From contig JACRGX010000056.1 in NCBI GenBank assembly GCA_016212185.1, positions 31,240 to 95,239 on the forward strand: a stretch of 64,000 bases of DNA. Reading direction: 5' to 3'. Position numbers and translations under genes: made by a program. Source of the stretch: Nitrospirota bacterium (GTDB lineage: Bacteria > Nitrospirota > Thermodesulfovibrionia > UBA6902 > DSMQ01). Positions 41,803 through 59,820 of the stretch are shown piece after piece; position 1 is the stretch's first letter; the number at the start of each line of letters is the position of its first letter. The notes beneath the pieces were generated by a model. The model made no database searches. It was not told the DNA's origin and saw only the letters and a program-made list of their open reading frames with translations.

Positions 41803-41922
41803 CTGTCATTGTCCGGCTTGACCGGACAATCCAGTACTTTCATATTCTGGTTCCCCGCTTTCGCGGGAACGGCACCTGCCGGCAGGCAGGTCTGGATACC
41901 CCGATTAAATCGGGGTATGACA
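41803..41922. repeat. MITE/REP-like composite element (3 hairpins plus CCTGCCGGCAGG palindrome)
   Basis: tgtcattgtccggcttgaccggacaatccag...ggttccccgctttcgcgggaac...cctgccggcagg...tggataccccgattaaatcggggtatgacaat. Confidence 0.6.
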
Positions 41923-41941
41923 ATTGAAAAGGAGGGGTGTT

Positions 41942-42424
41942 ATGCAAGTCTTGATTCTTTACTATTCCAAAGGGGGCAATACAAAAAAGCTTGCGGAGAT
42001 CATTGCAAAAGGCGTGGAGTCCGCCGGCGTAAAGGCTGTAATGAAAACCACGCAGGAGGTTACAAAGGATGACTTTCTTAATTCCGCAGGAATAATTGCC
42101 GGCTCTCCTGTTTATTTCGGGGTAATGGCTGCTGACCTTAAGCGGATATTTGACGAGTTTATCGGCACCAGGAGAAAAATTGGCGATTTTAAAGTCGGCG
42201 CTGCCTTTGCCACTGGAGGTCATCACACAGGAGGCAAGGAAACTACCATTATTTCCATCCTTCAGTGCATGCTCATATACGGAATGATTATAGTAGGGGA
42301 CCCTATGAGCGCATCTGGACATTACGGCGTAGGCTGTGTAGGCGCGCCGGATAAAACAGCTGATGATGAGGGCTTTAAGCTCGGCGCGCGTGTGGCAGAA
42401 CTTTGCAAGAGATTAAAAGGATAA
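41942..42424 (+). CDS. flavodoxin-like fold protein (WrbA/NAD(P)H:quinone oxidoreductase-type or flavodoxin)
   Basis: MQVLILYYSKGGNTKKLAEIIAKG flavodoxin signature; RBS aaaggagggg upstream; track ORF begins at an upstream TTG (41924) inside the repeat. Confidence 0.7.
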   Translation: MQVLILYYSKGGNTKKLAEIIAKGVESAGVKAVMKTTQEVTKDDFLNSAGIIAGSPVYFGVMAADLKRIFDEFIGTRRKIGDFKVGAAFATGGHHTGGKETTIISILQCMLIYGMIIVGDPMSASGHYGVGCVGAPDKTADDEGFKLGARVAELCKRLKG

Positions 42425-42428
42425 CTTT

Positions 42429-43184
42429 ATGGACTGGATAACTGACCCGCAGGCATGGATAGCGCTGGCAACACTTACAGCGCTTGAAATTGTGCTGGGC
42501 ATTGACAATATTATTTTCATCTCCATACTGACAGGCAAACTGCCTGTGCATCAGCGGAGAAAATCGCAGACCATCGGCCTCGCGCTGGCAATGCTTACGC
42601 GCATTATGCTTTTGTTTTCCCTTACATGGCTTATGCGACTTACCGCACCGCTTTTTTCCGTGCTGGAAAACAACATCTCAGGCAGGGACCTTATCCTGAT
42701 TACCGGCGGGTTGTTCCTTATTGGCAAAAGTACATTTGAAATTCACGACAAGCTTGAGGGCGAGGCTGGGCATTCTTCCGGCCGGACTGCGGCTTCCTTT
42801 GCAAGCGTTATCATACAGATAATGTTCCTTGACATTATTTTTTCGCTTGACTCCGTCATCACTGCCATAGGCATGGCAAATCAACTGATAATTATGGTTT
42901 TGGCAGTTGTCATTGCAGTAGTGTTTATGATGATGTCGGCAGGCAGGGTAAGCGGTTTTATTGAAAGGCATCCGACAATAAAAGTGCTTGCGTTAAGCTT
43001 CCTTCTTCTAATAGGCGTGGCCCTGATAGCTGATGGACTTGATTCCCACATTCCCAAAGGCTACATTTATTTTGCAATGGCATTCTCTGTATTTGTGGAG
43101 ATGCTGAACATCAGGGTGCGGCGCCGAGCCGTCCCCGTTAAACTTCACCAGTCGTATGTTGAAGAAGACGGCAATAATCCCTGA
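42429..43184 (+). CDS. TerC family integral membrane protein
   Basis: ALEIVLGIDNIIFISIL and second DSVITAIG repeat typical of TerC. Confidence 0.8.
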   Translation: MDWITDPQAWIALATLTALEIVLGIDNIIFISILTGKLPVHQRRKSQTIGLALAMLTRIMLLFSLTWLMRLTAPLFSVLENNISGRDLILITGGLFLIGKSTFEIHDKLEGEAGHSSGRTAASFASVIIQIMFLDIIFSLDSVITAIGMANQLIIMVLAVVIAVVFMMMSAGRVSGFIERHPTIKVLALSFLLLIGVALIADGLDSHIPKGYIYFAMAFSVFVEMLNIRVRRRAVPVKLHQSYVEEDGNNP

Positions 43185-43195
43185 AAATGGTTTTG

Positions 43196-43225
43196 TTGAC
43201 AGTAATCACGTCTGCTATTTATAAT
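43196..43225 (+). promoter_or_regulatory. candidate sigma70 promoter TTGACA-N18-TATAAT upstream of htrA
   Basis: ttgaca gtaatcacgtctgctatt tataat; second TAGTATAAT at about 43273-43281. Confidence 0.35.
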
Positions 43226-43285
43226 TCTAATAATAAGGATACCTAAACTACTCTGCGACAAAACCTCAGGGTAGTATAATCATAA

Positions 43286-56864: not shown

Positions 56865-58208
56865 ATGGCTAATATTGTAGTTGTCGGCGCCCAGTGGGGC
56901 GATGAAGGAAAAGGCAAAATTGTTGACCTGATGTCTGAAGACGCCGATGTCATAGCGCGGTATCAGGGCGGGCACAATGCCGGGCATACCGTTGTTATAA
57001 AGGATAAAAAGTTTGTGCTGCATCTTATCCCCTCAGGAATACTGCATAAAAATAAAATCTGCATCATAGGCAACGGTGTTGTCATTGACCCCGGAGCGCT
57101 TATTGAAGAAATAGAAGGACTGAAGAAAAAGGGGATTATCGCCGGCAAAAATCTTTTTGTGAGCGGTAATGCCCATGTCATTATGCCGTACCATGTTGCA
57201 ATTGAGGCCGCCTGCGAACAATCAAAGGGTTCAAAAAAGATTGGAACGACCGGCAGGGGCATAGGGCCTGCCTATGTTGACAAGGCATCAAGGGCAGGGA
57301 TAAGGATGCTGGACCTGCTTGACGCCGGCGTATTCAGGGAAAAACTTCGCGCAAATCTGCAAAATATGAATTATATCCTTGAAAACAGGTATAAAAGCAA
57401 AAGACTCAGCTTGGGAAAGATATATTCTGATTATATGAAATATGTCGGCTACCTGTCCCCGTTTATTACTGACACAAGTGTGCTTATTAACAAATTTATT
57501 GATAAAGGCAAAAACATCCTTTTTGAAGGCGCTCAGGGCACACTTCTTGACGTGGACCACGGGACATATCCTTATGTGACTTCATCAAATGCTTCTGCCG
57601 GCGGTGTTTGCACCGGGCTTGGCGTGGCTCCGACAAAGATAGACGGAATCGTGGGTGTAATGAAGGCTTATACGACACGGGTGGGAAGCGGGCCGTTTCC
57701 GACAGAATTAAAAGACAAGCTTGGCGAGGCGCTGCGGGCAAAAGGCGGAGAATACGGCGCAACAACCGGAAGGCCGAGGAGGTGCGGCTGGTTTGATGCG
57801 GTAAGCCTGCGGCATGCAAGAAGGATAAACGACTTTACCGGGATTGCCATGACAAAACTGGATGTGCTGGACGAAGTTGAAAAAATAAAGGTCTGTGTCG
57901 CTTATAAATATGAAAACCTCAAACAGGACTGCAAGTGCAGCATAAAAGGCAAACCATGCAAGTATACGGATGTGCCGCAGTCGCTCAGGGGGCTTGAAAG
58001 ATGCGAGCCTGTTTACAAAGAGCTTCCGGGATGGAAGAAAAACACGCTCGGAGTAAAAAAACTGAAAGATTTGCCGAAGCAGGCAAGGGCATATATTGAT
58101 TATGTTGAAGACCTGCTTAATGTGGGAATTGACATGATCTCTACAGGTCAGAAACGGGATGAAATTATTGTGCGTAGAAACCCTATGAAAGCATACAGGC
58201 GGCGATAA
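56865..58208 (+). CDS. purA: adenylosuccinate synthetase
   Basis: [21 protein letters not shown]. Confidence 0.95.
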
Positions 58209-58215
58209 TTTAAGT

Positions 58216-58977
58216 ATGAAAACGATACAGAAGCACAAAAGGCTTTTATTTCTATTTCTTGCAGTTTCTATCCTCCTTTCTGCCTGCGGCGGCAAAAAAG
58301 AAGTAGCGCCTGTCTTTAATCCGGATGCGTCTTTTAAGCAGGCGGCGGAAAAGGCAAAGGAAGGCTATTATGAAGAAGCCAGAAAAATACTTGAAGAGGT
58401 AAAGGCACAGGATGCGTCAGGCAAATATTCTCCGCTGGCACAGATACGCATCGGAGATATGTATTTTGAGGAAGGCTCTTATGAGGAGGCGGCCGCCGAA
58501 TACGAGCGATTTCTTGACATCCATTCTTATCACAGATATGCCTATTACGCTCAGTATCAGCTGGCCATGTGTTATTACAGGAGAATTGATACTATTGACG
58601 TAAGTTATGGATGGGCGCGGCAAGCCTTAACGGAATTTGAAAAACTTCAGACGACATATCCGCGCAATCCTTATATGAATGTTACTGAAAGCAGGATAAA
58701 GGAGTGCAGGAATATCCTTGCAGGGTTTGAATTTTATGTCGGAGAGTTTTATTTTAAGAAGGAGTCCTTTAATGCGGCTGTACTGCGGTTTAATCAGGTG
58801 CTTCAGAAATATCCCGATTCAAAAAAAGAAAGCGATGCGCTTTATTATCTGGCGCTGTCTTACAAAAACCTTGGGGATAAAGACAAAGCCATAGAGGCGC
58901 TTAACATGCTTCTTGATAAGCATCCGACAACAAGGCAGGCTGATGCAGCGAAAAAACTGATGACAACTTTAAAATGA
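58216..58977 (+). CDS. bamD: outer membrane assembly lipoprotein BamD-like (TPR lipoprotein)
   Basis: Lipobox LSACGG; TPR repeats; C-terminal YPDSKKESDALYYLALSYKNL parallels E. coli BamD. Confidence 0.65.
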   Translation: MKTIQKHKRLLFLFLAVSILLSACGGKKEVAPVFNPDASFKQAAEKAKEGYYEEARKILEEVKAQDASGKYSPLAQIRIGDMYFEEGSYEEAAAEYERFLDIHSYHRYAYYAQYQLAMCYYRRIDTIDVSYGWARQALTEFEKLQTTYPRNPYMNVTESRIKECRNILAGFEFYVGEFYFKKESFNAAVLRFNQVLQKYPDSKKESDALYYLALSYKNLGDKDKAIEALNMLLDKHPTTRQADAAKKLMTTLK

Positions 58978-59034
58978 GGATGAAGGCAGTTTTATTTTCT
59001 CTTCATCCTTCAGAATTCAACCTTCAACCTTTCA

Positions 59035-59658
59035 ATGAACTACTATCCGGTATATTTAAATCTTAGAGGTAAAAAAGCGGTTGTTGCCGGCGGCGGCAAT
59101 GTTGCGGAAAGAAAAGCGCTGGCCCTGCTGAAGGCAGGCGCCGCTGTTGCGGTTGTCAGCCCAGAGCTTACGGAACGGCTGGGATATCTGAAAAAAAAGG
59201 GCAAAATAACTCATATCAGAAGACAGTATAAAAAAGGCGACCTCAGGAATGCATTTATCGTTGTCGCCTGCACTTCTTCGGAAAAGACCAATACAGAAAT
59301 TGCCCGCAATGCAAAGTGCCTTGTAAATGTCGTTGGTACGCCTTCAGAGGGGAACTTTATTGTCCCCTCTACGGTAAAAAGAGGACATTTGACTATTGCC
59401 GTTTCAACGGGAGGCGTAAGCCCGGCGGTTTCAAAGGCCATCAGGAAAGAGCTTGAAAAGCTTTACGGCAGGGAGTTTGCGCATTATCTCAGGGCGCTTG
59501 TACAGATGCGCAGGAAGGCAATTAAGAAAATAAAAGACATCAAAAAAAGAAGAAAGAAATTTAAAGACCTTGCCTCAGAGGAAATGTTTAATATTCTCAG
59601 GAGCAAGGGCTTTAAAGCCGCCAGTGAGAAAGTAAGACAGTTATTTGATAGGGGATAA
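59035..59658 (+). CDS. precorrin-2 dehydrogenase / sirohydrochlorin ferrochelatase (CysG N-terminal / SirC-Met8 type)
   Basis: YPVYLNLRGKKAVVAGGGNVAERK signature. Confidence 0.8.
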   Translation: MNYYPVYLNLRGKKAVVAGGGNVAERKALALLKAGAAVAVVSPELTERLGYLKKKGKITHIRRQYKKGDLRNAFIVVACTSSEKTNTEIARNAKCLVNVVGTPSEGNFIVPSTVKRGHLTIAVSTGGVSPAVSKAIRKELEKLYGREFAHYLRALVQMRRKAIKKIKDIKKRRKKFKDLASEEMFNILRSKGFKAASEKVRQLFDRG

Positions 59659-59722
59659 GTTATGCATCAAACACAAAGTCATTGACCAGAAAACACCCTA
59701 TGGGTTTAATCAAAAAATTGCT

Positions 59723-59820
59723 TGTCATTCCCGCAAGCCCCGAACAAGTCGGGACAGGCTCCACACGTCGGGAATCTTTCTTGAATCCCGATACATCGGG
59801 ACGGACAAGCCGGAATGACA
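59723..59820. repeat. MITE/REP-like element with terminal inverted repeats TGTCATTCCCGC ... GCCGGAATGACA
   Basis: Three internal hairpins (cccgaacaagtcggg, cccgatacatcggg). Confidence 0.65.

Follow-up and report, generated by a model that had tools for sequence, protein, structure and literature searches.

Convergent hairpin repeats of the NTS/dRS3 class in intergenic spacers of a Nitrospirota bacterium

We analysed 64,000 nucleotides of a Nitrospirota contig (GenBank assembly GCA_016212185.1, JACRGX010000056.1, positions 31,240 to 95,239; hereafter the window, GC content 43%). Eight short palindromic elements lie there between open reading frames (ORFs), next to genes for a cytidylyltransferase, Ldh_2, a flavodoxin-like protein, TerC, HtrA, LarC, LarB, GpsA, an M29 peptidase, SerC, SerA, a siroheme-synthase-like protein and a DUF3568 protein. 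The named homologues of SerA at 73-80% identity belong to Nitrospirae or Thermodesulfovibrionia metagenome-assembled genomes (MAGs). That the eight elements are copies of a widespread class of hairpin repeats, comprising the Neisseria Transformation Sequence (NTS), dRS3 and the degenerate "Ssn-related motif" (SRM), is well supported. The hairpins occur mainly as convergent pairs, as they do around ssn genes elsewhere; we thus read the doublets as gene-less derivatives of SRM-ssn-SRM cassettes, non-autonomous elements that have probably been inserted, lost and recombined in intergenic spacers.

The intergenic elements and their hairpin module

A preliminary description, made from the sequence letters, had reported a family of eight elements resembling miniature inverted-repeat transposable elements (MITEs) or repetitive extragenic palindromes (REPs). 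All eight loci read as described, and all eight elements are intergenic. The motif TGTCATTCC occurs seven times in the window against 0.56 expected, a count reached by none of 100 shuffles, GGAATCCAG ten times, and the exact dRS3 sequence ATTCCC-N8-GGGAAT twice (47074-47093 and 47962-47981; 0.00 expected). The shared termini and internal hairpins are therefore far above chance, but the ends are not simple terminal inverted repeats: they are the outer halves of two convergent, oriented hairpin modules. The repeating module, about 28-37 nt long, is an oriented hairpin, YGTCAT-TCC-stem-loop-stem'-GGA-ATCCAG, that ends in GGAATCCAG. In six of the eight cases (copies 1-5 and 7) a plus-strand module, a spacer of 12-57 nt and a minus-strand module follow one another, so that the element starts with TGTCATTCC and finishes with GGAATGACA (Table 1). 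Copy 2 contains in addition a degenerate third module and copy 5 a remnant of one; copies 6 and 8, without complete modules, are mosaic or decayed relatives. The 29 nt said to be alike in two copies were found at 53543-53571 and 59721-59749, although the boundaries first drawn around these two elements enclose just 27 of them. The peptides IPAFAGMT and those of FPRKR type, ascribed to spurious translation, are hairpin translations, as the reading of 47958-47985 confirmed.

Twelve modules of the window were aligned, and a covariance model (CM) was built from the alignment. The 8-bp stem was paired in 99% of the cells, with compensatory changes in six of the eight stem pairs (21 cells), a level reached by none of 500 shuffles; slid controls gave 18-49% pairing. 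These changes extend into the ATTCC/GGAAT base of the stem, which becomes ATACC/GGTAT and ATTGTCC/GGACAAT in copy 2 and ATGCC/GGCAT in copy 4. Alignment positions G4, C32, C33, A34 and G35 were invariant, and T5 and C6 were present in 10 of the 12 modules. The C directly 3' of the palindrome was found in 12/12, and the upstream GTC was conserved in 12/12 for G and 10/12 for T and C. Run unfiltered over the whole window, the model recovered only the 12 modules (36-44 bits), plus 55040-55091 (17.6 bits, E 0.015) and a weak match at 59778-59822 (10 bits), so that no copy was overlooked in the window. In folds as single-stranded DNA, the z-scores of copies 1-5, 7 and 8 ranged from -2.6 to -7.2, and copy 6 was unstructured (-0.19); the RNA folds of the elements were stable as well.

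Table 1. Position, composition and setting of the eight elements in the window.
Feature	Position	Modules (strand) and spacer	CM score (bits)	Fold z	Setting and sequence
Copy 1, doublet	7485-7566	left 7485-7521(+), 16-nt spacer, right 7534-7566(-)	39.6, 37.9	-2.6	between Ldh_2 stop (7590) and cytidylyltransferase start (7434), both minus strand
Copy 2, three-module mosaic	41803-41922		39.8, 36.3, 41.9	-7.2	upstream of flavodoxin-like gene
Copy 2, left module	41802-41836	+			stem ATTGTCCGG/CCGGACAAT
Copy 2, degenerate inner module	41845-41876	-			followed by small hairpin CCTGCCGGCAGG
Copy 2, right module	41890-41924	-			stem ATACCCCGAT/ATCGGGGTAT; fits published SRM pattern
Copy 3, doublet	43286-43372	left 43284-43316(+), 27-nt spacer, right 43340-43374(-)	39.6, 42.8	-6.0	right module fits SRM pattern
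Copy 4, doublet	47069-47142	left 47068-47099(+), 12-nt spacer, right 47108-47144(-)	43.7, 40.3		between larB stop (47148) and larC start (47051); left module TGTCATTCCCGTGAAAACGGGAATCCAG, exact dRS3 and SRM pattern match; right stem ATGCCCGA/TCGGGCAT
Copy 5, doublet with degenerate inner module	47893-47985	left 47891-47923(+), inner about 47922-47945, right 47956-47987(-)	39.7, 41.5		between gpsA stop (47995) and larB start (47882)
Copy 6, decayed remnant	53545-53604		no match	-0.19	divergent M29-peptidase/serC promoter region; retains only the TGTCATTCCCGC left end; 29 nt in common with copy 8
Copy 7, doublet	55042-55130	left 55040-55091(+), 13-nt spacer, right 55101-55132(-)	17.6 (E 0.015), 39.2	-4.3	between serC and serA; left module with CCTGCC...GGCAGG hairpin nested in its loop
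Copy 8, atypical mosaic	59723-59820		10 (59778-59822)	-3.0	between convergent siroheme-synthase-like and DUF3568 genes; 9-nt TGTCATTCC/GGAATGACA ends without complete SRM hairpin; interior of CCCGA-N-TCGGG mini-hairpins

Two statements on the distribution of the elements had to be narrowed. A position between promoter and start codon, described as frequent, applies to copies 2, 3 and 6 only; copies 1, 4, 5 and 7 have co-directional neighbours on their two sides, and copy 8 has convergent ones. Copy 3 is preceded by a perfect 12/12 sigma-70 consensus (TTGACA-18-TATAAT, 43196-43225, between terC and htrA) and followed by an AAGGAG ribosome-binding site and an ATG at 43389, and would thus be part of the predicted 5' untranslated region (UTR) of htrA. 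The first 41 kb do hold a single copy, but the contrast in density mostly reflects the available intergenic space. Intergenic gaps of 60 nt or more number 5 in the first 39 kb (1,233 nt, one gap occupied) and 15 between 39 and 63 kb (3,648 nt, seven gaps occupied); copies are therefore few in the first part because this region is compact.

Ssn-related motifs and ssn cassettes

A literature search with DNA strings led to the papers on Ssn and on Neisseria repeats; the peptide strings IPAFAGMT, VIPAKAGIQ and FPRKRESS retrieved nothing. The NTS, CGTCATTCCCGCGMAVGCGGGAATCYRG, includes the classical dRS3 sequence, and the degenerate SRM was defined in the same study (Chenal et al., Nat Commun 2025, PMC11893778). 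The Neisseria protein SsnA, a single GIY-YIG domain of 94 aa, binds the NTS hairpin solely as single-stranded DNA, and neither double-stranded DNA nor RNA. Cleavage falls a short distance (a few nt) upstream of the hairpin; binding depends critically on the C after the palindrome, and cleavage on three upstream nt (PMC11893778). SRMs were found near 71% of ssnA homologues, and ssnA in 81% of the genomes with more than 200 SRMs; the NTS-ssnA-NTS arrangement was likened to an insertion sequence (IS), transposition being raised only as an idea (PMC11893778).

In the right module of copy 5, which contains an exact dRS3, the minus-strand sequence TGTCATTCCCGCGAAGGCGGGAATCCAG (47958-47985) matches the NTS consensus with one mismatch, and the plus-strand sequence 47070-47097 in copy 4 matches it with three (0 expected in both cases). 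The published SRM pattern had four matches in the window against 0.13 expected (100 shuffles). The remaining modules, about nine, miss this strict pattern through a longer loop or a changed stem (non-dRS3 modules have either loops of N5-N13 or altered stems), yet they score 36-43 CM bits. In our alignment the flanks are best conserved at the positions found critical in the work on SsnA. Integron attC sites, Xer/dif sites, Correia elements and Tn3 or IS ends were considered as well and dropped: they are unlike the elements, whereas the NTS match is near-exact.

The class is already published (PMC11893778, PMC1797815) and the family is not private to this genome. Additional copies elsewhere, without which the elements might have passed for independent palindromes, were abundant: in a scan of one genome per species, the exact 27-mer of module 47071-47097 was recovered at at least 120 loci in at least 20 phyla. 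The hosts listed include Dehalococcoidia, Desulfobacterota, Nitrospirota, Nitrospinota, many Patescibacteria, Poribacteria, Verrucomicrobiota, Bacteroidota, Cloacimonadota, Latescibacterota, a Rickettsia endosymbiont and others.

Hairpins of this class flank ssn genes in other genomes and in viral contigs, where ssn genes were called by Pfam PF01541 and homology to the Neisseria locus. Viral contigs were scanned for GTCATTCC-N(6-30)-GGAATCCAG, and among the matches listed, two (L005 and L067) have an ORF with a GIY-YIG domain (Pfam 1e-14 and 1e-15) enclosed by convergent hairpins. At one of the 27-mer loci, from Dehalococcoidia (L223), CGTCATTCCCGTGAAAACGGGAATCCAG, which equals window module 47070-47097 save for the first base, stands on both sides of a GIY-YIG Ssn ORF in convergent orientation. 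The most informative locus, L295, was found among 80 metagenomic loci encoding LarB relatives (GC 43%, syntenic gpsA-larB-larC). Its larB-larC slot, occupied by copy 4 in the window, holds an SRM(+)-ORF-SRM(-) cassette whose GIY-YIG product (Pfam 6.6e-14) shows 60% identity to the protein of L223 and, by tblastn (2e-18), 57% to the ssnA locus of N. gonorrhoeae. Its gpsA-larB slot, that of copy 5, holds a doublet of the same two module types as its ssn flanks. The left module of copy 1 and the right module of copy 4 resemble these two long-loop types, the former resembling the left module of the L295 cassette. Protein searches with the L067 Ssn returned Sphingomonadaceae and with the L223 Ssn Chloroflexi and Dyella/Rhodanobacter, neither with a Nitrospirota-named hit. 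To judge from these relatives, the cognate enzyme would be of GIY-YIG and not of IS200 or REP-associated tyrosine transposase (RAYT) type.

The doublet behaves as a unit. In 120 genome loci (866 kb), module neighbours at most 150 nt apart were convergent in 48 cases, divergent in 7 and tandem in none, with spacers peaking at 14-16 and 22-24 nt; at separations of 150-1500 nt the four orientations were even (8/10/10/12). The covariance model, run on 84 other loci, found 13 convergent doublets together with one cassette and a single isolated module. The convergent doublet agrees in polarity with the cassette, in that the 5' outer boundary of either strand is formed by the cleavable (module-sense) hairpin. 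One doublet subfamily is conserved, spacer included, between Nitrospinota, Nitrospirota, a deltaproteobacterium and copy 1 of the window, whose spacer ATGTTTTTAAAAGG resembles the TGTTTTCAAGG spacer of the other three, and the base pairs of its right module covary. We do not take the sharing of an identical 27-mer across phyla to prove horizontal transfer, because few positions are free; conservation of the whole doublet including the spacer is a better argument for such transfer.

Some further loci carry related arrangements. On three viral contigs (L081 11722-12038, L055 3761-3966 and L093 359-681), convergent SRM pairs 150-270 nt apart enclose small non-Ssn ORFs, including one of 105 aa and a Cys-rich one of 68 aa, which suggests either cassettes with other cargo or spurious ORFs. 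Two IMG/VR contigs (L025 and L090, GC 0.43-0.45) exceed the window by far in module density, with 12 and 8 modules in about 13.5 kb. In PLSDB, an N. gonorrhoeae replicon of 2.17 Mb is entered as a plasmid (L325, NZ_CP119142.1 1881119-1882585); nine NTS copies within 1.5 kb surround its ssnA-like frame, which has no in-frame ATG, the ATG being in another frame; the gene may be frameshifted in that strain.

Turnover among relatives

Comparison with relatives showed that the spacers differ in content. In L001, whose genes share 89-94% nucleotide identity with the window, the M29-serC spacer (flanking genes 89%) carries a longer version of copy 6, the window copy thus having undergone deletion; L002 and L003 lack an element there. 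Between serC and serA, L001 (94% nucleotide identity; SerA 97%) has an element that differs from copy 7, the two genes overlap without spacer in L002, and L003 (SerA 80% identity) has a doublet with the nested CCTGCC...GGCAGG hairpin of copy 7. At the gpsA-larB junction, the closest relatives (L245 and L247, 83% LarB identity) have no element, stop and start overlapping as TGATG, and in several others the junction is short and empty; in L256, L260, L265, L295 and the window it was filled independently by different SRM-type doublets. A Nitrospirae MAG (L229) contains, in a non-orthologous context and with nothing else shared, a composite that matches copy 5 at 83% identity over 101 nt, and the right end of copy 8, GGACAAGCCGGAATGACA, was found twice in L001. 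The load is patchy among relatives, with no module in the 21.6 kb of L002 and four doublets in L003.

A target-site duplication, which the preliminary description had proposed to look for, did not appear: 64 doublets showed no duplication of fixed length. Repeats of 2-3 nt at offsets of 3-4 nt were slightly in excess (19 against 7.6 expected, shuffle maximum 16), which could be explained by the A/T-rich flanks. The two bases before GTCAT were pyrimidines in these doublets.

The modules are associated with smaller hairpins. CCTGCC-N4-6-GGCAGG occurs in or beside SRM modules at 41874-41891, at 55059-55077 and in L003 (9840-9880), and GTCCCGA-N-TCGGGAC in copy 8, L003 and L161. In copy 7 and L003 the former is nested in the module loops, and this nesting suggests that hairpin loops serve as insertion points.

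A second kind of intergenic hairpin, built of tandem 7-8-mers, was observed between serA and purA (GGGGTCAAGGATTCAAGGGGTCAAG ... CTTGACC..CTTGAACCC, 56764-56851). The same 25-nt string occurs in frame within the GluRS gene (51738-51769, encoding ...RVQGVKDSRGQEQG...), and (CCCCTGA)x4 lies inside larC (46299-46326). The serA-purA junctions of L002 (AACTAAGAACTAAG...) and L003 (GGCACAAAGGCACAAAG...) have analogous hairpins with other tandem units, as do the gpsA-larB junctions of L246 and L248 (GGTTTAATTGGTTTAATT...). An inverted repeat of the same style (AGAGTTAAGAGTTAAAAGTT / AACTTTTAACTTTATACTCT, 37686-37768) was found in a 163-nt gap at the upstream end of a long row of minus-strand genes. 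Elsewhere in the window, 41292-41610, just upstream of copy 2, encodes a UPF0175 antitoxin-like ORF (Pfam 4.7e-15) followed by a 40-aa ORF without Pfam hit that resembles the N-terminal part of a PIN toxin; together they probably represent a toxin-antitoxin pair in decay. The minus strand also carries tandem class-I Glu/Gln-tRNA synthetase paralogues (48981-50660 and 50731-52209), one with GlnRS-type C-terminal domains and the other with a GluRS-type anticodon-binding domain.

Origin and significance of the doublets

The elements share with the NTS/SRM-Ssn system the same hairpin (one module being the NTS with one mismatch and four fitting the SRM pattern), the GTC upstream, the C after the palindrome and the intergenic position, and relatives contain an SRM-ssn-SRM cassette made of window module types. 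They differ in their host, a low-GC, Thermodesulfovibrionia-like Nitrospirota that the main text of the 2025 paper does not mention, and in their loops, often of 5-9 nt, and more varied stems, only four of about 13 modules passing the SRM pattern. The window copies are moreover almost all convergent doublets with spacers of 12-57 nt, a form not described in the main text of that paper, and the window has no ssn gene. The dRS3 units of the Neisseria intergenic mosaic elements (NIMEs; Parkhill 2000; Bentley 2007, PMC1797815) likewise stand inverted around short AT-richer spacers and form mosaic, recombining arrangements whose syntenic sites vary between close relatives. However, NIMEs form long arrays with more than 100 RS families of about 50-150 bp beside surface-antigen genes (PMC1797815), whereas the 64 kb of the window contain no arrays but isolated units of two or three modules with 12-57-nt spacers and housekeeping neighbours. 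In 2007 NIMEs were stated to be absent outside Neisseria (PMC1797815).

How the doublets move can be proposed by analogy. A GIY-YIG nuclease of about 95 aa, as in the Neisseria-type system, would bind the single-stranded hairpin and cut a few nt 5' of it; in this organism, recognition would be by an Ssn encoded elsewhere in the genome. Cleavage at both outer boundaries, one per strand, might mobilise or copy the doublets, which would be inserted into, lost from and recombined in spacers, including those within operons and in 5' UTRs. As in Neisseria, they may also affect what becomes of incoming or exposed single-stranded DNA. Any influence on transcripts, for example from the hairpins located in the 5' UTR of htrA, would be secondary. 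The doublets look mobile; that Ssn drives their mobilisation is a hypothesis, raised in the 2025 paper for the cassette, with which the comparative data are consistent. We advance more tentatively, as a possibility rather than an expectation, the broader proposal that convergent SRM doublets are non-autonomous mobile elements moved or copied in trans by a GIY-YIG single-strand nuclease that would nick each strand once, at the two outer boundaries. Such a parasite/host system would resemble the REPIN-RAYT systems (REPINs being REP doublets forming hairpins) but rest on an entirely different enzyme, and, unlike REPINs, would be horizontally shared over more than 20 phyla.

Several points weigh against the reading of the elements as SRM-class cassette derivatives. 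The window itself contains no ssn gene: a hidden Markov model built from 121 Ssn homologues gave a best E-value of 7.4 over ORFs of at least 50 aa, and a crude GIY-YIG regular expression run on the window ORFs found none either. LarB of L295, the locus that combines cassette and doublet, is only 65% identical to LarB of the window. The modules were picked by eye and their structure was derived from the same sequences, so that the pairing statistics are flattered. The identity of the 27-mer across phyla can come from constraint alone: only about three stem pairs and the tetraloop are free to vary, which makes its recurrence under protein constraint plausible. To our knowledge, transposition activity has never been shown for Ssn. 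Finally, N. meningitidis SsnA becomes inactive after a change of stem sequence even when the hairpin is kept (PMC11893778), and since the stems of the window are very diverse, many copies may be inactive or relics, or may need several enzymes.

The label under which the elements were first described, a MITE/REP-like family, fits them insofar as they are short, non-coding, palindromic, intergenic, repeated and variably present among relatives, but its two mechanistic expectations, target-site duplication and a Y1 transposase, were not borne out. Classical MITEs, deletion derivatives of DDE-transposase IS with terminal inverted repeats and target-site duplications, would share with our elements the TG...CA ends, the inverted termini, the length of 60-120 nt and the filled and empty sites among relatives. 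This origin is nevertheless very improbable, as the 64 doublets lack a fixed-length duplication, the apparent terminal repeats are halves of self-complementary hairpins with compensatory stem changes, and the gene-bearing version encodes a GIY-YIG protein of 95-107 aa. The absence of duplication is what single-strand Y1 transposition would produce, and inverted doublets of REP/REPIN type, moved in trans by a RAYT of the HUH/Y1 group as in Pseudomonas and E. coli, have the architecture of six of the eight elements: two inverted palindromic units around a short spacer, extragenic and often within operons. REP/REPIN-RAYT systems and bacterial interspersed mosaic elements (BIMEs) further resemble our system in having a cognate gene flanked by the same repeats, single-strand hairpin recognition and a preference for operon spacers. 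We still regard membership in this group as quite unlikely, because hairpins that are identical or closely similar flank a gene for a GIY-YIG and not an HUH/Y1 protein. In 23,380 ORFs taken from about 1.5 Mb around such hairpins, no IS200-like TnpA and no IS200/IS605 or RAYT-type Y1 transposase, the kind of enzyme suggested at the outset, was detected, in a weak test (phmmer with one query sequence, RAYTs being divergent). The head of REPs is of GTAG type, unlike the YGTCAT conserved here. In addition, the published genome-wide association screen singled out ssnA (PMC11893778), and near-identical doublets are common here to several phyla, whereas REPIN-RAYT systems have been described as vertically inherited (bioRxiv 10.1101/2022.05.22.493013). 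IS200/IS605 elements and their MITE-like derivatives, the palindrome-associated transposable elements (PATEs), also combine subterminal hairpins, a single-strand mechanism, lack of duplication and gene-less derivatives; their ends are however asymmetric, with distinct left and right hairpins, and their transposase is Y1, whereas both ends of the window elements are the same hairpin type inverted and the gene is GIY-YIG.

Two further explanations were considered. Most copies lie within transcription units, one of them downstream of a perfect sigma-70 consensus and ahead of the htrA start codon, and their RNA folds are stable, as would be expected of host RNA elements (stabilising or attenuating hairpins, terminators or 5'-UTR regulators) under selection at these genes. 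We consider such an origin unlikely, since orthologous sites in the nearest relatives are empty or carry unrelated variants, the same sequences stand beside unrelated genes in at least 20 phyla, and SsnA does not bind the RNA form (PMC11893778); moreover, Rfam gave 0 hits at gathering thresholds, and a consensus scan demanding a T-rich tail placed no element among terminator-like sites. Effects on RNA, including the htrA or serA transcripts, may arise as by-products. For E. coli REPs, such by-product effects are debated. Alternatively, the repeats could be integration targets for phages or other elements, as documented for dRS3 (PMC1797815), and the hairpins nested in loops of copy 7 and L003 show that loops can take insertions. 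This reading is highly improbable: no recombinase or prophage adjoins any copy in the window, copy 5 had no match in the phage collection, and use as a target would account neither for the origin of the repeats nor for their doublet form.

We thus favour the reading of the doublets as SRM-class, gene-less cassette derivatives, new aspects of which are the Nitrospirota host and the REPIN-like doublet form with its match to the cassette, both absent from the main text of the 2025 paper. Among the papers searched, none links GIY-YIG with REPIN or RAYT terms, the sole GIY-YIG match being the Ssn paper. Common and puzzling intergenic palindromes of Nitrospirota and many uncultured phyla are now tied to a characterised protein-DNA system, that of Ssn and NTS, and annotators are told which small ORFs to drop. 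The results also bear on the question, left open in 2025, of whether SRM-ssn-SRM is mobile: the evidence consists of the cassette-like orientation of the doublets, a cassette and a doublet of the same type in one contig, empty orthologous sites and the lack of target duplication. If the broader proposal is true, Ssn would be the first GIY-YIG "transposase-like" enzyme, and the very common spurious ORFs of VIPAKAGIQ/IPAFAGMT type in metagenomic annotation would be explained. If the Ssn of the source organism has relaxed stem specificity, it could offer a wider toolbox of site-specific single-strand DNA nucleases.

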